Source: Escherichia coli (GTDB lineage: Bacteria; Pseudomonadota; Gammaproteobacteria; Enterobacterales; Enterobacteriaceae). Taken from it: a stretch of 64,000 bases of DNA. Positions 3,323 through 54,735 of this stretch are shown one piece after another. A program made the translations under genes and the position numbers. The stretch is from NCBI RefSeq assembly GCF_003790525.1, contig NZ_CP033635.1; one strand, written 5' to 3'. The first letter of the stretch is position 1, and each line of letters begins with the position of its first letter. The notes beneath the pieces are model-generated. The model made no database searches and had not been told where the DNA came from. It worked only from the letters and a program-made list of their open reading frames with translations.

Positions 3323-4815
3323 AATGTGTGCTCCTTGATGCGGGCGTGAAAGCCCTCAAGTGCGGCAATGAGATGCTGATAGCGTTGGTATTTTTGTTGG
3401 TAAAGCTGATGTGCGGTCATATCCGGCAGCAGGGTGCGTACCGGGTGCTGTAAATCACGTTGGGCTTCGCTGAAATCGCGATAAACTCCGGTGCCGACGC
3501 GGGCGGCAAGTGCCGCACCAAAGCAGCCGGTTTCTTCCACCTGCGGCAGCTCGATACGCAGACCGCTGACGTCCGCCAGCATTTGCATCCAGACATCGGA
3601 ATGCGCCGGGCCGCCAGTGACGCGCAGGGTGTGCACATCAGTAAAACGTTCGCGCATCCGGTTGAGATGGGTCATATGGCTGAACACCACGCCTTCATAA
3701 ATGGCCTGCAACAGGTGTGCGCGGGTATGAATGGCCTGCATCCCGTAGAAACCGCTGGTCATCTCCAATCCGGCGTTGCTGCCGTACAGGAACGGCAGGA
3801 AAAAGAGATCGCCCCCGGCCTTCGGCAAGCTGGCAACGGCCTGGTTAATCTCATCAAACGAGATTTCTCCCCACTGTGCGGTAAACCATTCGAGGTTGCC
3901 GGAAGAGGTGGGGCTGGCTTCGTGAACGATAAATTGACCATCGTTAACGTAGCGACCATAGACATACGGATGCGCTTCACCGTCACGTAAACCACGGGTT
4001 ATGCCGCTGGTCACCGCCCAGGTGCCCATCACCGCATTGAGGGTAAATTCGTCTTCGATCCCGGCACAGAGTGCGGTGGAAACCACATCAAACAGGCCGC
4101 CGACAACGGGCGTACCCGCTTTCAGACCGGTCAGTGCGGCTGTCTGAGCGGTGATTTCCCCGCAAATTTCGGCAGATCCGACAACAGGCGGCAGGGCGTG
4201 GTTGATTTCAGCGATCCCCAGCCAGTCGGTGAGGCACGGGTCATATTCCTCAAGACTCATGTTGTAGAGGTTGGACTCGGAAATATTGCTCTCTTCGCAA
4301 CCTTTGACGCCGGTTAAACACCAGCGCAGATAGTCGTGCGTCATCATTACGCAGCCAATTTGCGCGTAGCGTTCCGGTTCGTGCTCTTTCAGCCAGCGTA
4401 ACAGCGACACCGGATGCCCGGTCCACAAGGTTTGTCGGGTCAGCGGGTAGAGTTTTTCCGGGATGCCATCTTCCTGCCAGCGACGAACGATTTCCATCGC
4501 CCGGCGGTCCGAGGACAAAATAGCATTCCCGAGCGGCTTGTCGTTTTTATCCAGCAAAAACAAGCCCTTTCCCTGTGCGGAGATACCGATACCCACTATT
4601 TGCTCCCCGCTGACACCAGAATGAGTAAGCAGGGTGCGAATGACAGCCATGCAGCATTGCCACAGTTCTGCCATATCGCGCTCTGCCCAGCCTGGCTGCG
4701 GGCTTAATGCGCACAGCGGCAGGCGCTGCACGCCTGCCTCCCGGCCTTCGCGGTCATACAGCCCGGCTTTCAGCCAGCTACCGCCACAATCTAACCCCAG
4801 CCAGTATTGCGTCAT
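3319..4815 (-). CDS. lyxK: L-xylulose kinase (FGGY carbohydrate kinase)
   Basis: 498 aa FGGY kinase; 4 bp overlap with sgbH. Confidence 0.9.
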   Translation of the reverse strand: MTQYWLGLDCGGSWLKAGLYDREGREAGVQRLPLCALSPQPGWAERDMAELWQCCMAVIRTLLTHSGVSGEQIVGIGISAQGKGLFLLDKNDKPLGNAILSSDRRAMEIVRRWQEDGIPEKLYPLTRQTLWTGHPVSLLRWLKEHEPERYAQIGCVMMTHDYLRWCLTGVKGCEESNISESNLYNMSLEEYDPCLTDWLGIAEINHALPPVVGSAEICGEITAQTAALTGLKAGTPVVGGLFDVVSTALCAGIEDEFTLNAVMGTWAVTSGITRGLRDGEAHPYVYGRYVNDGQFIVHEASPTSSGNLEWFTAQWGEISFDEINQAVASLPKAGGDLFFLPFLYGSNAGLEMTSGFYGMQAIHTRAHLLQAIYEGVVFSHMTHLNRMRERFTDVHTLRVTGGPAHSDVWMQMLADVSGLRIELPQVEETGCFGAALAARVGTGVYRDFSEAQRDLQHPVRTLLPDMTAHQLYQQKYQRYQHLIAALEGFHARIKEHTL

Positions 4816-4818
4816 GGT

Positions 4819-5805
4819 TTATTGCACCTCATCCACGGCTTTCAGCAGATCAGCTCCCTGCGGCACATCTTTAACAAACATGTCGCGAACCTGATTCCCC
4901 AGTGCGTCGCTAAAGGCTTTGCGGTCGAGATCGGTGATGACTTCCACGCCCGCTTCTTTCATGCCGTCGATGATTTTTTGCTGATCTTCGGCAACCAGTT
5001 TGCGCTGGTAGTTACCCGCTTCCTGCGCAGATGAAATTAGCGCTTGCTGGAACTCCGGGGTTAAGCCGTCAAACTTCGCTTTGTTGATCACCACCAGAAG
5101 TGGCGAATAGGCGTGGTGCGTCAGAGAAAGGTACTTCTGTACTTCATAAAATTTTGCTGACCAGACGACGTTGATCGGGTGTTCCTGAGCGTCGATAGTG
5201 CGCGTTTCCAGCCCGGTATAGACTTCGGCAAACGGCATCGGGATCGGGTTAGCGCCAAAGACTTTGAATGCTGCGATATTCATCGGACTATTGTTGGTGC
5301 GGATTTTCAGCCCTTTCAGGTCGGCGGGGGTTTTAACCGGTGCGCGCGAGTTGGTGACATCGCGCCAGCCGTTTTCCCAGTAGGCCAGTACTTTCAGTCC
5401 TTTACCTTCAAGTGAGGCTTTCAGATCATCACCGACTTTGCCGTCGAGCGTTTTATGCGCGTGAGCGGTATCGCGGAACAGGAAAGGGACATCAAGCAAG
5501 TTCATCACTGGTGATAACCCGGCAAAGTTATTCGAGCCGGACATTTCCATATCGATGGTGCCGCCACGTACGCCGCTGATCATCGCCTGCGCGTTACCGA
5601 GAGTGCTGTCCGGGAACAGTTTTAATTTCAGCTCGCCTTTGGTTCTCTCCTGCAATAAATCATTGAATTTTTTCGCCGCAATATGTTGCGAGTCGGTTTG
5701 TGAGGTTTCATAACCGAAACGTAAAGATTGCGCCGCCATTGAAGATGTACTAAATGCAGCCAGGCCAGCAATGAATAATGCGTAGGTTACAGAGCGTAAT
5801 TTCAT
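4819..5805 (-). CDS. yiaO: TRAP transporter periplasmic solute-binding protein
   Basis: 328 aa with signal peptide; DctP-type binding protein. Confidence 0.9.
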   Translation of the reverse strand: MKLRSVTYALFIAGLAAFSTSSMAAQSLRFGYETSQTDSQHIAAKKFNDLLQERTKGELKLKLFPDSTLGNAQAMISGVRGGTIDMEMSGSNNFAGLSPVMNLLDVPFLFRDTAHAHKTLDGKVGDDLKASLEGKGLKVLAYWENGWRDVTNSRAPVKTPADLKGLKIRTNNSPMNIAAFKVFGANPIPMPFAEVYTGLETRTIDAQEHPINVVWSAKFYEVQKYLSLTHHAYSPLLVVINKAKFDGLTPEFQQALISSAQEAGNYQRKLVAEDQQKIIDGMKEAGVEVITDLDRKAFSDALGNQVRDMFVKDVPQGADLLKAVDEVQ

Positions 5806-5817
5806 AATATTTTCCTT

Positions 5818-7095
5818 TTAATTAATCCATTTCAAAGGGAGGATGATGAGATCGGGAATAAAAACAAATACGACTAATAATGAATATAAAACCAGGACGT
5901 AAGGGAAAACGCCTCTGACTGCATCATCGAATTTGAGTTTTGCCACCCCTGAAATAACGTTAAGCACATTACCGATAGGCGGTGTAATTAAGCCGATTGA
6001 GCAGTTAATGATAAACATGACACCGAAATAAATCGGATCGATTCCTGCCTCTTTAACTAAAGGCATTAATACCGGAGTAAGAATTAACACCGTCGGCGTT
6101 AAATCCATGACCATGCCGACAATCAGGATAGCCAGCATAATAACGATAAACAGCAGACGCGGTGAATCGACCAACGGTTGCAGTAAATCAGAAACCATCA
6201 TCGGCAATTCAGCAATGGTAATCAGCCAGGCAGAAACTTGTGCCGAGGCCACCAGAAACATTACCACTGAGGTGGTTTTCGCCGCGCCAATGAGTACATG
6301 CCAAAGTGTGGCGAAGGTCATTTCACGGTAAATAACTGTGGCGACAAACAGCGCATAGAAAGCAGCAACGGCCCCGGCTTCGGTAGGGGTAAACAGACCG
6401 GAGCGAAACCCGCCAATAATGATGACTGGAAGAAACAGCGCCCAGATACCGGAGACAAAAGAGTGCCAGATTTCCTGCATCGTTGCTTTTTGCTGGCGGG
6501 GTAAATTAAGGCGACTGGCCTGCCACCACCAGGTAAGCATCAGCGTTGCGCCCATCATCATGCCAGGGGCAATGCCCGCCATAAACAGCTTACTGATGGA
6601 TAATCCGCTGGAAACGCCGAAAATAATAAACGGAATGGAAGGGGGAATAATTGGCGCGATAATGCCGCCAGAGGCAATCAGCCCCGCCGCCCGGTTGACC
6701 GGGTAGTTGGCGCTGCGCATCATCGGCACCAGTAGAGCGGCAACGGCGGCGGTATCCGCAACGGCAGAACCAGAAAGGCTTGCCATAATCATAGCCGCCA
6801 GCACGCCGACGTAGCCCAGCCCGCCTGGTTTATGCCCCACCAGTTTCATCGGCAGGTCAACAATGCGTTTTGACAAGCCGCCCGCATTCATGATTTCACC
6901 CGCCAGCACAAAGAACGGAATCGCCAGCAGGGAGAAGCTGTCGGCTCCGTTCACCAGCGTTTGTGCCATGATCTGGACATCAAACATGCCCAGCCAGAAC
7001 ATTAACGCCGCCCCGCACAACAACAGTGCCCAGGCAATAGGCAAACCGATAGCAATACCACCCAACAGACAGCCCAGAAAAATCAGCACAGCCAT
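5818..7095 (-). CDS. yiaN: TRAP transporter large permease (DctM-type)
   Basis: 425 aa polytopic membrane protein. Confidence 0.9.
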   Translation of the reverse strand: MAVLIFLGCLLGGIAIGLPIAWALLLCGAALMFWLGMFDVQIMAQTLVNGADSFSLLAIPFFVLAGEIMNAGGLSKRIVDLPMKLVGHKPGGLGYVGVLAAMIMASLSGSAVADTAAVAALLVPMMRSANYPVNRAAGLIASGGIIAPIIPPSIPFIIFGVSSGLSISKLFMAGIAPGMMMGATLMLTWWWQASRLNLPRQQKATMQEIWHSFVSGIWALFLPVIIIGGFRSGLFTPTEAGAVAAFYALFVATVIYREMTFATLWHVLIGAAKTTSVVMFLVASAQVSAWLITIAELPMMVSDLLQPLVDSPRLLFIVIMLAILIVGMVMDLTPTVLILTPVLMPLVKEAGIDPIYFGVMFIINCSIGLITPPIGNVLNVISGVAKLKFDDAVRGVFPYVLVLYSLLVVFVFIPDLIILPLKWIN

Positions 7096-7097
7096 GA

Positions 7098-7571
7098 TTA
7101 AGCTCCTTGCGGTGGCGACGTTAGAGAATTGCTACGCGTGATGAGTTGATATAAATGACGCAGTTCAAAGAATGCGATAACGAGGCTGGTGGGCAGACAA
7201 GCGGCATACATCAGGCCGATGGGCAAACCGAGGATCGGTGAATAATCGCTCCAGTCCTGAATTGTTTTTAGCGTTGCGCCCCAGGCCAGTGCGCCACAAA
7301 TAAATAAGATTAAGGAATGGGTAACCAGAGCGACTCGTCGCTGCCATGCGGGGGAGAGTTTCTCCACCAGAAAGGTGACCTGAACGTGGGCGTTATCCAT
7401 AAAAGCCACAATCGCGCCAATAAATGTTAACCAGACAAATAAATAACGTGACAATTCATCTACAGATAAAATGCTTGTCTGAAAACCATATCTTAAAATA
7501 ATGTTTATAAACACAATACAGGAAAGTACGGCGAGATTAATCGCCAGTATTGCTTCAAGTATTTTTTTCAT
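7098..7571 (-). CDS. yiaM: TRAP transporter small permease (DctQ-type)
   Basis: 157 aa membrane protein directly upstream of yiaN. Confidence 0.88.
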
Positions 7572-7688
7572 AGCTATTCCTTGAGGCTATGTCTGTCATA
7601 ATTAAAGTTGCATGTGCAGCAACCTAAATTATTAATATAGTTAGAGCAATAACATTACCCAGGCGTTCTGGCGTAGACGATTATTCGA

Positions 7689-8159
<471 letters not shown>

Positions 8160-8167
8160 TTATCTCC

Positions 8168-9166
8168 TTATAACGCCTGGATTTTTGCCCACACGCTGTC
8201 ATCAACGGTGATGCCGTTACGGCGGTTTTCGGCCAGCAGGGTAGTAAATTCGTGGCCGGGTAAGCGGATGGCCTGGTTTTCGTCAGCGCGTTCAGCGGTA
8301 GTAACGTAATCCATGATGCGTTGCAGCTTGGCATCGCGGGTGGGGCCGTCGATCAATTTATCCACTTCGATGGCGATAAAGATTTGCGAAACGCCGTATT
8401 CGTCGCTGTTGTCCTGGGTGACTTCGGCAACCGATGCGCCGTCGGAAAGGAGAGTGGCGATCATATCCAGCACAATCGACATGCCAGAACCTTTCCAGTA
8501 GCCCATCGGCAAAATGCGGCGATTCTTCTCGATAACGCCAGGTTCTTTGGTCAAATTGCCCTCATCATCAAAGCCACCATCGACCGGGAGCTGACGGCCT
8601 GCCAGACGGTTAACTTCTAACATGCCGTAAGAGAACATCGACATCGACATATCGACCATGGTGATTGGGGTAGAAGGAATGGCGACGATCAGCGGGTTGG
8701 TGCCGATGCGACACTCTTTTGCGCCCCACGGCGGCATTACGGCGATGGAGTTGGTCCAGCAAATGCCAATATAGCCTTTTTCCGCCGCCTGCCAGCCGTA
8801 GCTGCCGCCGCGCATCCAGTGGTTGGCATTACGTAGTGCCACCAGACCAATACCGTGATCGGCAGCCAGTTCAATGGCGCGATCCATCATCTTTTTCGCT
8901 GTCAGGTTACCGATCGAACGCTGGGCGTCCCACTGTTCAATTGCGCCGAGGCTGGTTATACGTTTGGGTTGGGCATCAGGAATGATATCGCCGTTTTCCA
9001 GTTGTTGAATGAAACGAGGGAAACGATTAACGCCGTGAGAATAAACGCCGGATTCGGTGGTGCGGGCGAACATCTCTGCACAGGCGTCAGCCGTTTCGCT
9101 GTCAACGCCGCGTGAAATTAAGACCCGATTAAAGGCTGCTTTTAACTGCTCAAATGTCACTTTCAT
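8168..9166 (-). CDS. yiaK: 2,3-diketo-L-gulonate reductase
   Basis: 332 aa; first gene of the yia operon. Confidence 0.9.
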
Positions 9167-10837: not shown

Positions 10838-10945
10838 TGCCGGATGCGGCTTAAACGCCTTATCCGGCCTACAAATTCTTCCAAATTCAATATATTGCAG
10901 AAATGATGTAGGCCTGATAAGCGTAGCGCATCAGGCAATTTTTAA
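10838..10945. repeat. REP/BIME palindromic elements between convergent ysaA and avtA
   Basis: tgccggatgcggc…gccttatccggcctaca and inverted tgtaggcctgataagcg…gcatcaggca REP-type sequences. Confidence 0.75.
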
Positions 10946-12195
10946 TGACTTTCAGCCCAGGCGCGTTCAATCTCTTCCGCCAGAATCTTCACCCCCGCCT
11001 CAATTTTATCCGGCTCCGGCACGTAGTTCATGCGCATACATTGATGTGTATGTGGCCACGGTTTATCCAGCCCTGGGAAGAAGTTGTGCCCCGGCACCAT
11101 CAGCACGCCCCGTGCTTTCAGGCGCTGGTAGAGCTGCTCGGTCGTAATTGGCAAATCCTTAAACCATAGCCAGAGGAAAATGGCTCCTTCCGGTTTATGA
11201 ATCAGGCAGCGATCTTCCGGTAAATAGCGGCGAATGATGGCGATAGTTTCCTGAACACGCTGGTAATAAAACGGTTTGATAACCGTTTCAGACAGGCGCA
11301 GCAGATCGTTACGCTTAATCATTTCACACATTATCGCCGGACCAATACCGCCAGGCGCCAGGCTGATAATGCCGTTCATGTTGGTGATTGCGGTGATGAT
11401 TTTTTCATTGGCGATGATAATGCCGCAGCGCGAACCCGGTAGTCCCAGCTTGGAAAGACTCATGCACAGTACAATATTCGGATTCCACAGCGGGCGCGCT
11501 TCGCTGAAGATGATACCCGGGAACGGGACGCCATAAGCGTTATCAATCACCAGCGGAATGCCGTGTTGATTCGCCAGCGCGTCAAGCTTCAGCAACTCTT
11601 CGTCAGTAATCACATTGCCTGTTGGATTCGTCGGCCGGGAGACGCAAATCATCCCGGTTTCTTCGCCAATATGCAGATGCTCAAAATCGACGTGGTATTT
11701 AAACTGGCCTTCCGGCAGCAGTTCAATATTCGGACGCGCAGAGACAAACAGATCTTCTTCCAGTCCGGCGTCAGCGTAGCCAATATATTCCGGTGCCAGC
11801 GGAAACAGCACTTTTTTGATCCGACCATCGGCACGGCGTCCGGCAAACAGATTAAATAAGTAGAAAAACGCGCTCTGGCTGCCGTTTGTTAGTGCAATAT
11901 TCTGTGGTTCGATATCCCAACCCAACTTCTCGCGCAGCATTCCGGCAAGCAGTGTGAGTAGCTCCGTTTTCCCCTGTGGACCGTCGTAATTGCACAGTGC
12001 ATCAGTCGCTTTGCCACTTTCCAGCATGTCGGTCAGTAGCGTCTGGAAGTAGTCCTGCATTTCCGGGATCTGCGCTGGATTACCGCCGCCGAGCATAATC
12101 GCGCCAGGCGTGCGTAAACCGTCGTTCAGATCTTCCATCAGCAGCGTAATGCCGGAGTGGCGGGTAAATTTGTCACCAAAAAGGGAGAATGTCAT
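10942..12195 (-). CDS. avtA: valine-pyruvate aminotransferase (transaminase C)
   Basis: ATG (complement) at 12193..12195 gives 417 aa starting MTFSLFGDKF; ORF track over-extends the N-terminus. Confidence 0.9.
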   Translation of the reverse strand: MTFSLFGDKFTRHSGITLLMEDLNDGLRTPGAIMLGGGNPAQIPEMQDYFQTLLTDMLESGKATDALCNYDGPQGKTELLTLLAGMLREKLGWDIEPQNIALTNGSQSAFFYLFNLFAGRRADGRIKKVLFPLAPEYIGYADAGLEEDLFVSARPNIELLPEGQFKYHVDFEHLHIGEETGMICVSRPTNPTGNVITDEELLKLDALANQHGIPLVIDNAYGVPFPGIIFSEARPLWNPNIVLCMSLSKLGLPGSRCGIIIANEKIITAITNMNGIISLAPGGIGPAIMCEMIKRNDLLRLSETVIKPFYYQRVQETIAIIRRYLPEDRCLIHKPEGAIFLWLWFKDLPITTEQLYQRLKARGVLMVPGHNFFPGLDKPWPHTHQCMRMNYVPEPDKIEAGVKILAEEIERAWAESH

Positions 12196-29536: not shown

Positions 29537-29770
29537 TCGCTAAATAATAGAGCAACCTTTAATAATCTTCTGCTGAATAAAGATTGTCTCATATATTAAT
29601 TTTATGAGATTTTTTTAGGATTATATCAAGGAGAAGAAACGAACTTATTAAGCTAGAATAGCTGCGGGTGCTTGAGACTGTTTGTCTCAGGTATTCACCG
29701 AAAGGCAGACAGAGAAAAGCCCCACCTGACTATAAATCAAAGTGTGTACTGACCCCAGAAAGTTGGACAG

Positions 29771-30622
29771 TTAAACACGAGGCATATAGGTCTGATTCCG
29801 ATATTCAATTGGAGTCAGACCTTTTAATTTCAGGCTAATTCTTCTGCTGTTGTAGTATTCAATATATTCCGTAACAGCATCCTTCAGCTCGCTTATATTA
29901 CTGAACTCATCAAGATAAAAACACTCCGACTTTAAGGTTCCAAAGAAACACTCCACCACAGCATTATCCAGACAATTGCCTTTTCTGGACATGCTTTGTT
30001 TAATACCATGTTCTTTAAGGATATTTTGATATCTTCTCATACGATACTGCCATCCCTGGTCAGAGTGCAGAACAGGATGCTCGTGAGGATTAAGCTTTTT
30101 GAATGCCTGATCGAGCATATTCTCGACCATGTTCATCACTGGTCTTTCCGAAAGGCTGTAAGAAATAACTTCGTTGTTGAAGAGATCTATTACTGGAGAC
30201 AAATACAGCTTGCGCCCATTGACTGCAAATTCAGTAACATCGGTAACCCACTTCTCGTTTGGCCGCGTAGCCTTGAAATCTCTTTGGAGAACATTGGGGG
30301 CGGTTTGCCCTACCTCTCCTCTGTAAGAGCGGTATCGCTTGACCTTAATCGCTGCCTTCAGTGAGAGGATTCCCATCAGGCGCTGAACAGCTTTATGGTT
30401 AATCTGTTTCCCTTCTCGATGAAGAGACAGCGTTACCCTACGGTATCCGTATCGGCCTCTATTCTCATGATAAATCTCACCAATACGCTTTTTAACGTCC
30501 GCATACTTGTCAGGCTTGCTGAGAGCCTTTAGATGGTAATAAAACGTACTGCGCGGTATCTCCGCAGCCCTGAGAAGCTCATCAAGAGGATAAAACTGCC
30601 TTAGCTCGTTGAGTACTTTCAC
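29771..30622 (-). CDS. insK: IS150 transposase OrfB (DDE catalytic domain)
   Basis: 283 aa. Confidence 0.92.
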
Positions 30623-31140
30623 TTTTTCGTGGGATGAGCTAAGGCTTTCAGCTTTTTTAGATACACAAGCCGCGTTTCAAGAAATCGAACTTGCCTTTCA
30701 AGATCCTCAATGCGTCGGTCTTTTGACAGCTCCAATGCTGATGCCGCTTTTTCTGGATCAACTGATATTGCAATGTTTCTTTTGGTGCCAATCTTGAGCG
30801 CGCGTAAACCAGCTTCTCCGCGCTCTTCATAAACCTTCAGCCACCTGGCTACAGAACCACTACCAGCAAGCATAAAGTGAGCAGCAGCCTGATTAAGAGA
30901 CATGTGCTGCTCGATCACAGCTTTCACGACCTTAATACGCAACTCAGGATCAGCACTAACACCTTTAGGTTTGGGAATTAAACCTTTTTCTCCATGTTTT
31001 TCATAGAGGGCAACCCATGTCCTGACCTGGGTTCGGGGGACACCAAAACGTGCCGAGATGATCCTGTAACCATCATCAGTAGTGAAGTAGTGATTCACGA
31101 CTTCAAGGCGCTTTTCAAAAGGGTATTTTGGCTTTGACAT
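30619..31140 (-). CDS. insJ: IS150 OrfA (HTH DNA-binding)
   Basis: 173 aa; overlaps insK as in IS3-family elements. Confidence 0.92.
   Translation of the reverse strand: MSKPKYPFEKRLEVVNHYFTTDDGYRIISARFGVPRTQVRTWVALYEKHGEKGLIPKPKGVSADPELRIKVVKAVIEQHMSLNQAAAHFMLAGSGSVARWLKVYEERGEAGLRALKIGTKRNIAISVDPEKAASALELSKDRRIEDLERQVRFLETRLVYLKKLKALAHPTKK
30652..30658 (-). promoter_or_regulatory. A-AAA-AAG slippery heptamer for the programmed -1 frameshift producing the InsJK fusion transposase
   Basis: reverse complement of cttttttag at 30652..30660 reads ctaAAAAAG, near the 3' end of insJ. Confidence 0.6.
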
Positions 31141-31219
31141 ATCAGGGGCTATTCCATTTCATCGTCCAACAAAATGGGTGCAGTACATACTCGTTGGAAA
31201 TCAACACAGGAGGCTGGGA

Positions 31220-31372
31220 ATGCCGCAGAAATATAGATTACTTTCTTTAATAGTGATTTGTTTCACGCTTTTATTTTTCACCTGGATGATAAGAGATTCA
31301 CTGTGTGAATTGCATATTAAACAGGGGAGTTATGAGCTGGCGGCGTTTTTAGCCTGCAAATTGAAAGAGTAA
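31220..31372 (+). CDS. hokA: Hok-family type I toxin; locus disrupted because IS150 lies 32 bp upstream
   Basis: 50 aa MPQKYRLLSLIVICFTLLFFTWMIRDSLCELHIKQGSYELAAFLACKLKE; hok-like mRNA 5' sequence (gtgcttgagactgtttgtctcag) is found on the far side of IS150 near 29675. Confidence 0.85.
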   Translation: MPQKYRLLSLIVICFTLLFFTWMIRDSLCELHIKQGSYELAAFLACKLKE

Positions 31373-31505: not shown

Positions 31506-31536
31506 AAAAAAATCCCCGCCATTTGGCAGGGATCTT
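31506..31536 (-). terminator. rho-independent terminator of cspA
   Basis: minus-strand hairpin atccctgcc-aaat-ggcggggat followed by T-tract. Confidence 0.7.
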
Positions 31537-31560
31537 AGATTCTGTGCTTTTAAGCAGAGA

Positions 31561-31773
31561 TTACAGGCTGGTTACGTTACCAGCTGCCGGGCCTTTAGCG
31601 CCGCTTTCGATGGTGAAGGACACTTTCTGACCTTCGTCCAGAGATTTGTAACCATCGTTCTGGATAGCAGAGAAGTGTACGAACACGTCTTTAGAGCCAT
31701 CGTCAGGAGTGATGAAGCCGAAGCCTTTGTCAGCGTTGAACCATTTTACGATACCAGTCATTTTACCGGACAT
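31561..31773 (-). CDS. cspA: major cold-shock protein CspA
   Basis: 70 aa [70 protein letters not shown]. Confidence 0.98.
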
Positions 31774-31932
31774 AGTGTATTACCTTTAATAATTAAGTGT
31801 GCCTTTCGGCGATATGGCGTGCTTTACAGATTTTGAAGCGTTAAAGGAATGTGCACTACGAGGGGTATCAACGATAACTCTTGAAGGGACTTGCCTTACT
31901 ACACTGCTTTAATGGTCTGTACGTCAAACCGT
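31774..31932 (-). promoter_or_regulatory. cspA long 5' untranslated leader (cold-responsive RNA thermosensor region)
   Basis: about 160 nt between the expected promoter and the cspA start codon; boundaries approximate. Confidence 0.55.
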
Positions 31933-32053
31933 TGATGTGCATTAAGCCACGCATTGGCGGGTGATGCAACAATTATTTTTCATATTTATGATTAATCGGT
32001 TGGAAAACGGTCCTGTCATCAGGACCGTAAACAGCAATAAAGTGGATAAAAGT

Positions 32054-43129: not shown

Positions 43130-43206
<77 letters not shown>

Positions 43207-43296: not shown

Positions 43297-43385
43297 GTAG
43301 GCCTGATAAGACGCGCCAGCGTCGCATCAGGCAAATGTACCGGCCCATTGTCGGATGCGGCGCGACCGCCTTATCCGATCTACAC
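43297..43385. repeat. REP/BIME palindromic element pair
   Basis: gtaggcctgataagacgcg…gcatcaggca and …tcggatgcggcgcgaccgccttatccgatctaca. Confidence 0.7.
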
Positions 43386-49663: not shown

Positions 49664-50935
49664 TTACTCAATCAGCTTCAACAGTGGCGACAAGCATAGC
49701 AAAATGCCGTAAAGCAGAATCAGCCAGGCTTTAAATCCGCGAAGTTTTTCCAGTTGTGCGACTTTATAGATCAGGAAAAACGGAATGAGGCACGACACAA
49801 TGCCATATAACGGGCTTCCCAACTGAAAGAACACCAGCACCGATACACGAAACGAAACCCAAATCGTCAACGTAATGACGATAAAAGCGCAGATCGCCAG
49901 AGTCAGCACGCGTGAATTAATTTTCTTGGTATCAATAATTCGGCTTAACAGATTGAGAATAATGCCTTTAATGGCCTCGTGGAAACCGAGATAAATGCCA
50001 AAGAATGCGGTCAGTACGGCAAAGATATTCAGCACCGTAGAGGTGATATGAATGATATGCCCAGGGATCACCTGCGCGGCCAGTGCCAGTGCCGAGATAT
50101 TTTGTTCAAAGGCAGAAACGGCTTCTTCGTGGCTAATTGAGAAGGTAAACGAAAAGGCAAAAAACAGGATCACCGCGATGAGCGTGACATAACTAATTCG
50201 GTGGGTACGCAGCGCGAGCCGGGTTGCCAGTACTTTATCCGCTTCCCGTTTACGATAGGCAATATTCATTGGGTTAAGTACCTGAATAAATACCGCAGAA
50301 AAGAAGCAAAAGGGAATGGTAAGCAGGACATCGCGGAAAAAGACGGAGGCTTGCGGGAAGGCGGTTATATTGGCGAAATTCCAGTGCGGGATCATCGCAA
50401 AACCGAACACGACGATAATCCCTACTTTGACCACCACCATTGGCCCGGAAATCTTAAACAGTAATCGTTCACCACCAGACGCAATTGCCACCAGTACGGC
50501 GAAAATGGCGACTTTATAAAGTAGAGATTGTGAAAGATCGGCATCGGTTAAACCGAAGGTTTTCAGGTACGAGGCGCTGTCGAAAACCACGGAGAGAGAG
50601 TAGATAAAAATCCCGTGGATAATCATCAAAAAGTAGATAACCCCGAGGAAAATTCCCCAGTTCTTCCCCAGGTAATGACTGATAATATCGGTGTAGTCAT
50701 TACAGGAATCGCTTTCAGAAAGGGTTTTTAAATAAATGTCCTGCACTACCCAGGTGGCAGGATAAGCAATGATCGCTGCGGTAATAAATACCCAAATTCC
50801 CTTCAAGCCAATTTGTACTGGCATCAGCACGGTTCCGGCACCAATCGCCATGCCTATGCATAATAAAACCCAGCCGAAGTCGTAGCGTGTAAACGGCAAT
50901 TTCTGATCGTGTTTCGGTAGTGTGTTGTGCTGCAT
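49664..50935 (-). CDS. yhjV: HAAAP-family (serine/aromatic amino acid-type) transporter
   Basis: ATG (complement) at 50933..50935 gives 423 aa starting [15 protein letters not shown]. Confidence 0.85.
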
Positions 50936-51410
50936 AAAGTCCTGTCCAGAAAGAAGTCGGCCTCGCAAAAATGAATAAACCCAGTTTCTCTTGCGCAACA
51001 GGTGGAGAAGTCGAATACGCAGTATGTAAAAAATGAGGCAACAGATTCACTGGGGAGGTCGCGAGGAGGCGCAATTCTACAAAATTGCGCATTTCACTAC
51101 CAGTCTGGAGTCAGCCCGGATATGAACTGCAACTATTGCAAATAAAGAAATTAAGCTGGAATGCATCACGCAATGAGGAAGATTGCCGGGTGCTGACGGT
51201 AAAAAGCAATCGTAGAATCAGCGGCAAGCCGGAAAGGTTCCGGTGAGGCGCAATGTTGCGGGGGCTTAATCCCTGGTGGCATTGGTTGCTGGAGAGAGAA
51301 AACCCCCGCATATTGCAGGTATGCACCTGACAACATCACGGGGGCTAATCTTGAACCTAGACCACTCAAGAATAGCCGCGAAACGTTGTCATTACAACAC
51401 AGGCGGCTAT

Positions 51411-51518
51411 ATGACGCTCGCAGAACTGGGCATGGCCTTCTGGCATGATTTAGCGGCTCCGGTCATTGCTGGCATTCTTGCCAGCATGATCGTGAACTGG
51501 CTGAATAAGCGGAAGTAA
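51411..51518 (+). CDS. ldrD: Ldr-family type I toxin peptide (35 aa), copy 1
   Basis: MTLAELGMAFWHDLAAPVIAGILASMIVNWLNKRK. Confidence 0.85.
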   Translation: MTLAELGMAFWHDLAAPVIAGILASMIVNWLNKRK

Positions 51519-51893
51519 CGTGTCAGACGGGCGTCAGGCTGCCGTAATGGCAATTTGCGCCCGGACCAGGCCGCAGGGATAAAACTCTGCGGCCTTTTTC
51601 GTAAGAAAAATGCAACGGTTGCAAGCGGATAATATTCTGCGGAATGCGCAGCACAGAGTGAAGACGTGACGGATTCCGGAACAGAAAAACAGTCGTAGAA
51701 TCAGCGGCAAGCCGGAAAGGTTCCGGTGAGGCGCAATGTTGCGGGGGCTTTATCCCTGGTGGCATTGGTTGCTGGAGAGAGAAAACCCCCGCACGTTGCA
51801 GGTATGCACCTGACAACACCACGGGGGCTAATCTTGACTCTAGACCACTCAAGAATAGCCGCGAAACGTTGTCATTACAACACAGGCGGCTAT

Positions 51894-52001
51894 ATGACGC
51901 TCGCAGAGCTGGGCATGGCCTTCTGGCATGATTTAGCGGCTCCGGTCATTGCTGGCATTCTTGCCAGCATGATCGTGAACTGGCTGAACAAGCGGAAGTA
52001 A
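51894..52001 (+). CDS. Ldr-family type I toxin peptide (35 aa), copy 2
   Basis: identical peptide to copy 1. Confidence 0.85.
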   Translation: MTLAELGMAFWHDLAAPVIAGILASMIVNWLNKRK

Positions 52002-52377
52002 CGTGTCAGACGGGCGTCAGGCTGCCGTAATGGCAATTTGCGCCCGGACCAGGCCGCAGGGATAAAACTCTGCGGCCTTTTTCGTAAGAAAAATGCAACG
52101 GTTGCAAGCGGATAATATTCTGCGGAATGCGCAGCACAGAGTGAAGAAGTGATGGATTTCGACGAACAAAAATGGCCGTAGAATCAGCGGCAAGCCGGAA
52201 GGGTTCCGGTGAGGCGCAATGTTGCGGGGGGCTTTATCCCTGGTGGCATTGGTTGCTGGAGAGAGAAAACCCCCGCACGTTGCAGGTATGCACCTGACAA
52301 CACCACGGGGGCTAATCTTGACTCTAGACCACTCAAGAATAGCCGCGAAACGTTGTCATTACAACACAGGCGGCTAT

Positions 52378-52485
52378 ATGACGCTCGCAGAGCTGGGCAT
52401 GGCCTTCTGGCATGATTTAGCGGCTCCGGTCATTGCTGGCATTCTTGCCAGTCTGATCGTGAACTGGCTGAACAAGCGGAAGTAA
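52378..52485 (+). CDS. Ldr-family type I toxin peptide (35 aa), copy 3 (M26L)
   Basis: MTLAELGMAFWHDLAAPVIAGILASLIVNWLNKRK. Confidence 0.85.
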   Translation: MTLAELGMAFWHDLAAPVIAGILASLIVNWLNKRK

Positions 52486-52861
52486 CGTGTCAGACGGGCG
52501 TCAGGCTGCCGTAATGGCAATTTGCGCCCGGATCAGGCCGCAGGGATAAAACTCTGCGGCCTTTTTCGTAAGAAAAATGCAACGGTTGCAAGCGGATAAT
52601 ATTCTGCGGAATGCGCAGCACAGAGTGAAGACGTGACGGATTCCGGAACAGAAAAACAGTCGTAGAATCAGTGGCAAGCCGGAAGGGTTCCGGTGAGGCG
52701 CAATGTTGCGGGGGGCTTAATCCCTGGTGGCATTGGTTGCTGGAGAGAGAAAACCCCCGCACGTTGCAGGTATGCACCTGACAACATCACGGGGGCTAAT
52801 CTTGAACCTTAACAACTCAAGAATAGCCGCGAAACGTTGTCATTACAACAGAGGCGGCTAT

Positions 52862-52969
52862 ATGACGCTCGCAGAACTGGGCATGGCCTTCTGGCATGAT
52901 TTAGCGGCTCCGGTCATTGCTGGCATTCTTGCCAGTCTGATCGTGAACTCGCTGAATAAGCGGAAGTAA
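52862..52969 (+). CDS. Ldr-family type I toxin peptide (35 aa), copy 4 (M26L, W31S)
   Basis: MTLAELGMAFWHDLAAPVIAGILASLIVNSLNKRK; tgg to tcg change. Confidence 0.8.
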   Translation: MTLAELGMAFWHDLAAPVIAGILASLIVNSLNKRK

Positions 52970-53055
52970 CGTGTCATGCGGGCGTCAGGCTGCCGTAATG
53001 GCAAGTTGCGCCCGGACCAGGCCGCAGGGGTGAAACTCTGCGGCCTTTTTCGTTC

Positions 53056-54735
53056 TTATTGCGGGTAAGGCACCCAGTCGCCGCCGTTCAGGCGAACGTA
53101 CGGTTTATCCTGGTATTGAATAACTACTGCATTTGAGTTCTCGGAGACCGGTGCTGTTTGTGGCAACCCACTGGTGAGTTTTTTCCAGTCAACATTGTCT
53201 TCGGTGAAAATCTTGCCATCAAGAACCCGAACCACCAGATCGGAGATAGCCAGGAAGCTGCTCGGTTGGTCGATGACAATCGGTGCCCCCTGATGTGGTG
53301 CCTTCATGCCGAAGAATTTCACCCCAACGGGGACGTCTGTGATAGACGGGCTAGGGATATCACGTAGGCCAGATACCTGCATTCTGTCGCCCTTCAGCGC
53401 GCCGCCGTGTTCTGGCACCACGACCACCATCACTTTACGACCCGATTTCTCCAGTTCAGTAAAGAAGGCGTCCAGTTCATCAAAGAATTTCTGCGCCCGC
53501 GCTTTGTAATCCGCTGTTTTGCTGACGCCCGGATAATGGTTGCCGTCATGCAGTGGAAGCGTGTTGTAGAACGTGGCACTACGGCTGTTTTTATCTTTTT
53601 CGGTAACGTCCAGCCAGCGGTTAAGCACGGCGGTATCGTCATAAACCGGCGAACCATCAAAGCCCAGCAAAATAACCGGCAGATTTGTTTGATCCATCAA
53701 TTCGGTCTGCATGCCACCATTTTCGCGAACTTCTTTCAAAAAACCGCCGAACTGGCCGTTATGTCCCATCATCAGGTGCTGGGTAAAGCCCAGTTTCGAC
53801 AGGTTATCAAACAGATAGCAGTCATTATTTGCCGGTTGATACAGATTAGTGTGCGAAGTCTGCCCGCAGCTGGCGCGCAGTAAACGGATCGCCGCCGGGC
53901 CACTGTGGGAGGTGGCGGAGTTAAAGTTCTTGAACTCAATATCGAAATGCGACCACAGCGGATGCGACATCAACCCGGCGGCTTCAATATCCGACCAGGA
54001 AAGCGAACAGATATTAATCACCAGTAGTTCAAATGGCTGAGCATCAGCGGGCAGCGAAGACGGGAAGGTCGATTTACGTTTCGCCTCCGCGTTATAGAAA
54101 TTATTCAGCCAGGCGTTAAGGTTCGCCGTTGTTGGCGGTGCAGTTTGTGCGGGCATATCACCCACTACCGGTGCGCCACCCGTCGCCGCAACGGTTGCCG
54201 CTGCGTTACCACCCGTCGTTGTTACAGTGGTCGTCGGTTGACCGGCAGGCCACAAGGAGAAACTTGGTCCCGCCAGGGTAAGTACGTTCAGCCATAGCAG
54301 AATGGCAACCACAAAAACGGTAATGCGAATCCATTGTGACAGGAATAACCAGGCCACTAATAAAACAAAAATGGCCCCAATCATCTGCCAGTTAATAAAG
54401 CGTGTGACAAGGTCGATTAAATAATCGGTACTGAACCCCGCCACCTGCGAACCCTGGCTCATTATGCTTTCCGGGCCAGGCAACCAGGTGTCATGCCAGA
54501 ACAAAGCAAAGCCGATCGGCAGGGCAATCCAGTGGCGTAAGCGATGCAGGCTGTAGCGCGGAATGGGCATCAGCAGAAACGCGGCAAACACCAGATTGAG
54601 GAGCGGATGGAAGTTAAGATATCCTGCCCACAACAGGCCGAACTTAACCAGAAAATAGAAGTTCCAGCCGGAAAGGCCGCGCCAGTATTGCCAGAGGGAA
54701 GAAGGCATGGCGGTATTTTGCGTAAATTGAGTCAT
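53056..54735 (-). CDS. bcsG: cellulose phosphoethanolamine transferase
   Basis: 559 aa; N-terminal membrane domain plus alkaline-phosphatase-superfamily domain. Confidence 0.92.

Follow-up and report, generated by a model that had tools for sequence, protein, structure and literature searches.

The window analyzed here, a 64,000-nucleotide stretch of Escherichia coli DNA, contains a tandem array of small modules between yhjV (49664..50935, minus strand; in agreement with the SMS-3-5 annotation mapped to the window) and an intact bcsG (53056..54735, minus strand). Tandem Repeats Finder reported a single array at 51202-53053, with a period of 484, 3.8 copies and 96% matches. Unit cores were delimited by two anchors, the conserved unit start CGTAGAATCAG and the terminator end, which resolved the plus-strand array (51211..53053) into four head-to-tail LDR-D-type units with a period of 483/483/484 bp. 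This agrees with the four units of about 484 bp described in the initial annotation and with the four Ldr coding sequences annotated at this place in the nearest genomes. The cores, all on the plus strand, span 51211..51602 (unit 1), 51694..52085 (unit 2), 52177..52569 (unit 3) and 52661..53053 (unit 4, nearest to bcsG), and the first would constitute an ldr transcription unit by homology to K-12 LDR-D. Pairwise identity among the four units is 94.4-97.7%, and unit 4 carries 11 differences that are private with respect to the other units and concentrated at its 3' edge. Three plus-strand spacers of about 91 bp, of a kind confined to multi-copy arrays, separate the cores (51603..51693, 52086-52176 and 52570-52660); spacers 1 and 3 are the same, and spacer 2 is 93.6% identical to both.

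Each unit encodes a 35-codon ldr ORF on the plus strand, at 51411..51518, 51894..52001, 52378..52485 and 52862..52969, with start codons exactly where they had initially been placed. ORF 1 encodes the peptide MTLAELGMAFWHDLAAPVIAGILASMIVNWLNKRK and ORF 2 the same peptide, ORF 3 an M26L variant, and ORF 4 a variant with M26L and W30S (WP_000170736.1). Comparison of the peptides thus bears out M26L in copies 3 and 4, while the tryptophan substitution of copy 4, previously given as W31S, sits at residue 30. All four peptides differ from K-12 LdrD by F3L. The most divergent copy, that with W30S, is covered over residues 1-35 of 35 by the Pfam family Ldr_toxin (PF13940, E = 1.2e-23), and a match to the LdrD structure PDB 5LBJ was obtained at E = 1e-16. 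The tryptophan that follows the transmembrane helix throughout the superfamily is present in units 1-3 as W30, followed by LNKRK; unit 4 has S30 in its place and keeps the charged C-terminal tail. W30 is the signature tryptophan of the Ldr/Fst superfamily, in which it precedes a charged C-terminus (PMC2887945). Fst of pAD1, the prototype, has a valine at the equivalent position and is toxic nonetheless (PMC7472228), and since Fst also lacks the tryptophan, the unit 4 peptide is still admissible to the superfamily. Loss of the tryptophan may, as initially suggested, weaken the toxicity of copy 4.

On the minus strand, each unit encodes an Rdl RNA, located at 51297..51362 (rdl 1), 51780..51845 (rdl 2), 52264..52329 (rdl 3) and 52748..52813 (rdl 4). 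The Rfam model rdlD (RF01813) gave four full-length minus-strand matches of 86-88 bits, well above its gathering score, which is 50. Rdl 2 matches K-12 RdlD exactly across the 64 nucleotides annotated for the latter, and rdl 3 is identical to rdl 2; rdl 1 and rdl 4 each differ from K-12 RdlD at five positions, the hairpin being kept in rdl 1 and four of the differences in rdl 4 lying in the 5' tail. The changes in Rdl 1 preserve base pairs (G-C to G-U, U-G to U-A). The four RNAs thus fall into three sequence classes (unit 1; units 2 and 3; unit 4), which differ at four to five positions, mainly in the single-stranded 5' tail. Sites that tell the units apart include 51311/51312, 51355/51356 and 51359/51360 and their counterparts in the other units. 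All four share a hairpin of -29.5 to -31.7 kcal/mol (z = -4.0 to -5.4; none of 200 shuffles was as stable), and four terminator-like sites on the minus strand consist of the Rdl stem-loop followed by a U run. Rdl lies opposite the 5' leader, not the start codon: the RNA is a perfect complement of the stretch from 114 to 49 nt before the ATG, and the distance of 49 nt from the Rdl 5' end to the ldr ATG, found in every unit, is the one annotated in MG1655. A scan for sigma-70 consensus sequences found no promoter-like site at a threshold of 9/12; by eye, and below that threshold, an 8/12 promoter-like site precedes every rdl (TTGTAA, 17 nt, TATTCT, 6 nt to +1).

Hairpin terminators with an 11-bp stem and a T run follow all four ldr ORFs on the plus strand, as initially described (51568..51595, 52051-52078, 52535-52562 and 53019-53046). 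The 70 nt upstream of ldr in unit 1 are unlike those of units 2-4, with 48 of 75 aligned positions matching, and the presence of an ldr promoter is assumed purely by homology. The leaders differ in a run of G residues, for which lengths of five, six and seven had been reported; the lengths do vary, but they are 5, 5, 6 and 6 in units 1-4, and a 7-G run is absent. In units 1 and 2 the leader contains a 25-codon ORF preceded by GGTGAGG (51253..51330 and 51736-51813, plus strand), which is also kept in K-12, both in LDR-D and in two units of the LDR-A/B/C triplet. The leader ATG lies 158 or 159 nt ahead of that of ldr. With the sixth G, this ORF becomes an 88-codon fusion in frame with ldr in unit 3 (52219-52485, plus strand) and a 5-codon stub in unit 4 (52703-52720, plus strand). 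Given these shifted leader ORFs, the four units need not be equally active. Phase variation of the poly-G tract was considered and rejected: tract lengths do not vary across six independent SMS-3-5-lineage genomes, and the tract is therefore not hypermutable on that timescale. The 25-codon leader ORF is probably not the published ldrX, because it terminates 81 nt ahead of the ldr ATG, whereas ldrX is reported to overlap the ldrD initiation region (PMC8167048).

Taken at the level of sequence, these features support the assignment of the array to the LdrD group of the Ldr/Rdl (LDR) type I toxin-antitoxin family, and the identity proposed in the initial annotation is backed by Pfam, Rfam, PDB, synteny and 98% identity to K-12 LDR-D. 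Its account of K-12 was likewise correct: MG1655 has a single ldrD/rdlD between bcsG and yhjV, and the ldrA/B/C triplet lies between kdsA and chaA. A search of the window's Ldr peptides against NCBIfam returned no family for any of them, and the ldr ORFs are short, both of which would fit a non-coding intergenic repeat, REP/BIME-like or the remnant of a mobile element, with small ORFs arising by chance. However, the Pfam, PDB and Rfam matches are full-length and already refute this reading, the geometry is the same as that of the experimentally characterized K-12 ldrD/rdlD, and transposase and terminal inverted repeats are absent, so that its probability is practically nil.

A further question is whether live and decaying modules stand side by side, W30S in unit 4 and the 6-G leaders of units 3 and 4 being steps of inactivation tolerated through redundancy. 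Such a process would account for the loss of a conserved Ldr/Fst signature residue (PMC2887945), for the disruption by the sixth G of a leader ORF that is conserved in K-12, and for the 11 private differences of unit 4. Against it, each of the four units retains an intact ORF, Rdl hairpin, terminator and set of Rdl promoter-like elements, the W30S peptide still scores as a full-length Ldr_toxin, pAD1 Fst is toxic with valine at this very position (PMC7472228), and one of the LDR units of K-12 itself has a run of four G and a leader ORF that is shifted. Moreover, the W30S peptide is an old and widespread allele, found on at least 1,000 contigs and in both 2-copy and 4-5-copy arrays, with the exact 89-mer present in 304 complete-genome records (the 89-nt query around W30S undercounts units, at 10,996 places, and was used solely for the frequency of this exact allele). 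All three peptides (M26, L26 and L26/S30) represent standing alleles that are common, with more than 800 contigs for each. Decay is thus an unlikely explanation, and the initial description of the copies as diverging is misleading: the variants are widespread, and the differences between units represent a recombinant mosaic and not decay in place.

The origin of the four-unit state can be read from a close relative. The 64-kb window equals strain SMS-3-5 (NC_010498.1) except for the array and one synonymous base. Five units each are present in seven complete genomes of this lineage, SMS-3-5 included, with an identical array in six of the seven, and the array of the window is the SMS-3-5 five-unit array minus exactly one 484-bp period. 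Units 1, 2 and 4 are exactly units 1, 2 and 5 of SMS-3-5, while unit 3 is chimeric, its 5' part matching SMS-3-5 unit 3 and its 3' part SMS-3-5 unit 4. The junction of this one-unit difference necessarily lies within 52393..52533 (not assigned to a strand), where any cut leaves zero mismatches; this interval is a 140-bp stretch common to units 3 and 4, and the longest identical stretch between them. The four-unit array of IAI39 can likewise be derived from an SMS-3-5-type five-unit array by removal of one period, at a different junction and with one mismatch. Within the window, site partitions 14|23 (six sites) and 12|34 (four sites) are interleaved along the unit, so no single tree of the four units fits. 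Duplication of a two-unit block was also considered as the origin of the four units and rejected: it would fit the identity of spacers 1 and 3, but the bodies of the units break the pattern.

Within its own lineage, then, the array has contracted, not expanded, through unequal recombination or else through a collapse in the assembly. An assembly artefact, in which the isolate truly has five units and the assembler skipped one period via the 140-bp stretch of units 3 and 4, is quite possible, although we lean slightly against it. It would be in keeping with the single base that differs from SMS-3-5 outside the array, with the stability of the five-unit state suggested by all seven complete genomes of the lineage, with a junction placed in the longest run of sequence that units 3 and 4 have in common, a spot at which a graph assembler would face an ambiguity, and with the chimeric unit 3, for which an exact match is absent from 5,426 complete genomes. 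However, real RecA-dependent unequal crossing-over predicts the same signature, genuine whole-unit differences exist among finished genomes, as in the IAI39 array, which is common to several independent assemblies, and the 64-kb sequence around the array is contiguous and otherwise free of anomalies. Were it an artefact, the errors would be confined to the copy number and the chimeric unit 3, and the array would still be of the same nature. We favor a model in which out-of-register homologous exchange between units drives change in the array, with units gained or lost in whole 484-bp steps and sequence patches shuffled among them; the present array would then correspond to the SMS-3-5-lineage array of five units after the removal of one period between units 3 and 4. 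In sum, the locus very probably comprises four LdrD-type Ldr/Rdl type I modules at the normal LDR-D site, in a contracted array of the SMS-3-5 type that evolves by such exchange.

The Ldr/Rdl family belongs to the textbook type I toxin-antitoxin systems, and its loci have been on record as tandemly duplicated since 2002-2010. To place the array within the species, units were counted with a query from the spacer, which is specific to multi-copy arrays and matches one to four places per matching genome; copies were taken as places plus one, a rule verified on one match. Two or more units occur at yhjV-bcsG in 3,304 of 5,426 complete E. coli genomes (61%), and four copies were found in nine of 60 genomes of a systematic sample. 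Based on samples of 60 rows together with the totals, the estimated distribution of LDR-D units in complete genomes is about 39% with one, 10-13% with two, 33-35% with three, 12-16% with four and 1-2% with five or six. The total unit counts obtained with two independent queries, from the spacer and of 351 nt, are in agreement (12,413 against about 12,380). Counting by query coverage was rejected: joined BLAST pieces reuse one stretch, and one-copy genomes showed 91% coverage. Two loci with a seemingly broken match (H48 and H43) proved on inspection to be ordinary three- and two-unit loci.

The array is therefore expanded, as had been suggested, with respect to the single unit of K-12, but neither with respect to a species in which 61% of genomes have at least two units nor with respect to its own five-unit lineage. 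Multi-copy states, including four units in about 12-16% of genomes, are common enough that the array, as the initial annotation had allowed, is real but unremarkable. It is an ordinary locus of an already known system, with a copy number commonly between one and about six, and standard pipelines annotate such arrays at yhjV-bcsG; PGAP already labels Ldr toxins at multi-copy loci, four of them in IAI39 and others. With regard to the frequency estimate for the LDR-D site, no per-locus ldr copy count was found in the literature searched; a BLASTn survey from 2024 was limited to tis, shoB and zor (PMC11264685). The comparison with SMS-3-5 furthermore provides a clean example of unit loss, in which exactly one unit differs on a background otherwise changed by one base in 64 kb, and a practical warning that assemblies may silently lose or gain a unit at the yhjV-bcsG array.

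With respect to function, each unit of about 390 bp would be a self-contained module. A long-leader mRNA from the plus strand is predicted to encode the 35-residue hydrophobic inner-membrane peptide, and having its own intrinsic terminator after the toxin ORF, each unit would form its own transcription unit. From the minus strand, a 64-66-nt Rdl RNA would be transcribed from its own promoter-like elements (TTGTAA, 17 nt, TATTCT). Pairing of Rdl would prevent Ldr translation, and surplus Ldr would arrest growth, a scheme carried over from K-12 on the published basis for the Ldr/Rdl mechanism (PMC4147584, PMC8309996, PMC2887945). Toxicity upon over-production, relieved by RdlD, is known for K-12 LdrD/RdlD only (PMC4147584, PMC8309996), and expression of the present array and toxicity of its peptides are predicted by extension. 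The three Rdl classes could confer cognate-only repression by analogy with Sib/Ibs, and the three leader forms (25-codon ORF, 88-codon Ldr fusion and 5-codon stub) could provide different translation routes; in addition, the unit nearest to bcsG encodes a widespread toxin variant devoid of the superfamily tryptophan. If the modules were differentiated in this way, the gain or loss of a unit, such as the step from five to four, would alter both the repertoire of specificities and the dose; that the four units are functionally differentiated modules held together by recombination, and not redundant copies, appears distinctly improbable.

Among known systems, K-12 LDR-D occupies the same site in the same orientation with 98% nucleotide identity over the 396-bp unit, as compared with 81% for LDR-A/B/C; its RdlD is the same as Rdl 2 and 3, and its Rdl 5' end likewise lies 49 nt from the ATG. 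It differs in having one unit instead of four and no spacer of about 91 bp, and the window peptides depart from its LdrD by F3L in four, M26L in two and W30S in one. K-12 LDR-A/B/C resembles the array in being composed of tandem Ldr/Rdl modules with the same unit architecture, and the leader from -150 to -91 is 93-100% identical. However, this array lies at another locus (kdsA-chaA), belongs to another subgroup and has a period of about 535 bp, and identity falls to 81% over the unit and to merely 63-73% over the toxin ORF. The IAI39 array (NC_011750.1) has four units at the same site, all four annotated as Ldr toxins by PGAP, with 99.4% identity over 2.7 kb, and its first and last peptides recur in the window; the order runs M26, L26, L26, L26/S30 in IAI39 and M26, M26, L26, L26/S30 in the window, and bcsG is interrupted by IS4 in IAI39 but intact in the window. 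More distantly, Fst/RNAI-RNAII (par of pAD1), Ibs/Sib and Zor/Orz share with Ldr/Rdl small hydrophobic toxins under repression by antisense RNA; Ldr and Fst have a common superfamily signature, and Ibs/Sib and Zor/Orz also occur as tandem duplicates with strain-dependent copy number (PMC2887945, PMC7472228, PMC11264685). DNA-level sequence similarity between these three systems and the array is absent, and Fst-like systems differ from Ldr/Rdl in that their antisense RNA lies opposite the 3' end instead of the 5' leader (PMC2887945).

Tandem Repeats Finder resolved a single tandem array between yhjV and bcsG (51202-53053; period 484, 3.8 copies, 96% matches). With the conserved start of the unit, CGTAGAATCAG, and the terminator end as anchors, four unit cores were delimited, at 51211-51602, 51694-52085, 52177-52569 and 52661-53053, in agreement with the four units reported in the initial annotation. 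The cores are set apart by three spacers of ~91 bp each and show pairwise identities of 94.4-97.7%. Each unit carries a 35-codon plus-strand ldr toxin ORF, with its ATG exactly where it had been placed (51411, 51894, 52378 and 52862), and the terminator proposed to follow each ORF was found in all four units as a hairpin with an 11-bp stem and a subsequent T run. All four peptides carry F3L relative to K-12 LdrD. The 70 nt 5' of unit 1 (51141-51210) form a divergent homologue of the spacer's 3' part (51624-51693, 52107-52176, 52591-52660), matching the spacer-type upstream sequence at 48 of 75 aligned positions, suggesting that the ancestral repeat reached further left. The upstream sequence is K-12-like in unit 1 and of the spacer type in units 2-4, and the promoter-proximal sequence of unit 1 probably differs from that of the other units.

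The most divergent peptide, carrying W30S, matches Pfam Ldr_toxin (PF13940) across 35/35 residues (E = 1.2e-23) and the solved LdrD structure 5LBJ (E = 1e-16). Four full-length matches to the antisense RNA family rdlD (Rfam RF01813; 86-88 bits, gathering score 50) occupy 51297-51362, 51780-51845, 52264-52329 and 52748-52813 of the minus strand. The Rdl 5' end is located 49 nt upstream of the ldr ATG in every unit, which is the annotated geometry of MG1655 ldrD/rdlD, and Rdl 2 and Rdl 3 are identical to K-12 RdlD across its 64 annotated nucleotides. A common hairpin is predicted for all four Rdl RNAs (-29.5 to -31.7 kcal/mol), with none of 200 shuffles as stable. An array unit shares 98% identity with the single K-12 ldrD/rdlD unit (LDR-D) but 81% with the K-12 ldrA/B/C triplet (LDR-A/B/C), identifying these as LdrD-group units at the LDR-D site. 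These sequence-based family tests (Pfam, PDB, Rfam, geometry and identity to LDR-D) all upheld the proposed Ldr/Rdl identity, and by sequence the array is an LdrD-group member of the family at its canonical site.

By homology, each unit may act as an independent module, in which the plus strand would be transcribed into an ldr mRNA made up of a long leader, the 35-codon ORF and a terminator belonging to that unit, and promoter-like elements on the minus strand would drive synthesis of a short Rdl RNA. Upstream of rdl, the arrangement TTGTAA, 17 nt, TATTCT and 6 nt to +1 is kept in all four units, and each Rdl shows perfect complementarity to the leader within the unit that encodes it. A sigma-70 consensus scan returned no site reaching threshold, so the ldr promoter remains putative. 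In K-12, LdrD in excess is toxic, an effect relieved by RdlD; cells producing LdrD quickly stop growing and condense their nucleoids, and LdrA lowers ATP. Translation is inhibited by RdlD through a mechanism still called unknown in reviews, and a coupling model involving the leader ORF ldrX has been proposed without proof (PMC4147584, PMC8309996, PMC8167048). By analogy with this literature, the four units would have the same toxin and antitoxin functions.

A 25-codon leader ORF, MLRGL[N/Y]PWWHWLLERENPR[I/T]LQVCT, starts 158 nt 5' of the ldr ATG and has GGTGAGG, a good Shine-Dalgarno sequence, in front of it. This ORF, which is probably distinct from the published ldrX, is present on the plus strand in units 1 (51253-51330) and 2 (51736-51813), as well as in K-12 LDR-D and two of the three LDR-A/B/C units. 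The leader poly-G run does vary between copies, as initially noted (5, 5, 6 and 6 in units 1 to 4), although the seven-G run listed there is absent. The sixth G shifts the leader frame, giving an 88-codon in-frame fusion with Ldr in unit 3 (52219-52485, plus strand) and a 5-codon stub in unit 4 (52703-52720, plus strand); in one LDR-A/B/C unit, with a 4-G run, the leader ORF is likewise shifted. Between LDR-D and LDR-A/B/C, leader positions -150 to -91 (~51261-51320 in unit 1) are 93-100% identical whereas the toxin ORF is just 63-73% identical, marking the leader as the part under the strongest constraint in the unit. The first 21 leader codons hold a single, synonymous nucleotide difference, too little to separate constraint on the RNA from constraint on the peptide.

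Peptide comparison confirmed M26L in copies 3 and 4, while the substituted tryptophan in copy 4, initially numbered 31, is residue 30. The W30S peptide (RefSeq WP_000170736.1) and the M26/W30 variant each occur on at least 1,000 contigs and L26/W30 on 831; all three are common alleles. W30S is encoded nearest bcsG in IAI39 (four units), MS14387 (two) and the SMS-3-5 lineage (five), and an exact 89-mer spanning it was present in 304 complete-genome records. W30 is the signature tryptophan of the Ldr/Fst superfamily (PMC2887945), but the Fst prototype has valine at this position, where the residue has been called 'not essential for function' (PMC7472228), so that a weakening of toxicity by W30S is possible but unsupported. 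Among 24 variable sites, six group units 1+4 against 2+3 and four group 1+2 against 3+4, interleaved along the unit; since these conflicting groupings cannot share one tree, the units have exchanged segments. The copies, earlier described as diverging, thus do not diverge in the sense of decay in place. Eleven differences are private to unit 4 and lie mostly at its 3' edge, where the unit is similar to the lone K-12 unit, as usually happens when array edges escape homogenisation.

Neither K-12 LDR-D nor ldrABC contains a match to the inter-unit spacer (window 51596-51690), which therefore marks only multi-copy LDR-D arrays. As a probe the spacer matched 3,304 of 5,426 complete E. coli genomes at one to four places each (6,979 in total); copies were taken as places plus one, a rule checked on one match with three places and four annotated Ldr genes. 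A systematic 60-row sample contained one place in 13 genomes, two in 35 and three in 12. A whole-locus query on a separate 60-row sample, read with help of inspected individual loci, gave one copy in 24 genomes, two in 6, three in 20 and four in 9. With a 351-nt query for the unit, 5,405 genomes together yielded 12,413 units (median 3, maximum 6), in agreement with the ~12,380 implied by the spacer counts. Combining the three queries, we estimate that about 39% of complete genomes have one unit at the LDR-D site, 10-13% two, 33-35% three, 12-16% four and 1-2% five or six. The single copy, as in K-12, is the commonest individual state, multi-copy arrays outnumber it overall, and four units, initially taken as an expansion, are not unusual.

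Because SMS-3-5 (NC_010498.1), like several other genomes, matches the segment 28800-30600, 22 kb from the array, at 100% identity, it was chosen for comparison with the whole window. The 64 kb differ by one absent 484-bp period and, outside the array, by one base (62248, A in the window, G in SMS-3-5), a synonymous Pro CCA/CCG change in bcsB. The SMS-3-5 array has five units (M26, M26, L26, L26, L26/S30), and removal of one period reproduces the window array with zero mismatches, the cut lying anywhere in 140 bp common to SMS-3-5 units 3 and 4 (window 52393-52533). Five units were also found in all six further complete genomes (China, Japan, USA; blood, urine, river water, pangolin), and the array is base-for-base identical in six of the seven, SMS-3-5 included. 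The exception, XDL (NZ_CP043033.1), has 12 changes within ~55 bp of the third unit (~285.3-285.7 kb of the record), a pattern suggestive of a short tract of gene conversion between units. Thus the array called expanded is so relative to the single K-12 unit, but relative to its own lineage it is contracted from five units to four.

Unequal homologous recombination would explain this difference, and so would an assembler jump across the shared 140 bp; the signature fits both equally, and we lean only modestly towards recombination. The four-unit array of IAI39 equals the same five-unit array minus one period, with another junction and one mismatch. The chimeric third unit of the window has no exact match among the 5,426 complete genomes (best 99.1%). 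Of modest value are the frequency table for the LDR-D site, the clean difference of one unit against an otherwise identical background, and the warning that copy number in this array is liable to error or change.

Elsewhere in the window, a second type I toxin-antitoxin locus, hokA/sokA (29666-31372), is split by IS150, an arrangement shared with K-12: sok lies at 29666-29762 (Rfam), IS150 at ~29771-31140 and hokA at 31220-31372 (mapped from the SMS-3-5 annotation). Rfam matches to the cspA thermoregulator (31506-31933, minus), a tRNA (43130-43203, plus; tRNA-Pro in SMS-3-5), naRNA4 (43300-43380, minus) and ES036 (10873-10915, plus) are ordinary for this chromosomal region. The neighbouring bcsG is intact; in CUVET19-1704 (5389-8507) and IAI39 (3857-5701), whose array sizes differ, IS4 interrupts it after the same 1,332 nt of its 3' part.

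As initially stated, MG1655 carries a single ldrD/rdlD between bcsG and yhjV and the ldrA/B/C triplet between kdsA and chaA. Lineage-specific duplication of ldr loci was reported in 2010 (PMC2887945), and in the nearest genomes four genes at the locus carry the NCBI pipeline annotation 'type I toxin-antitoxin system toxin Ldr family protein'. The system is therefore already known and annotated as Ldr toxins in public genomes, and it differs from K-12 LDR-D only by copy number and common allelic variants.
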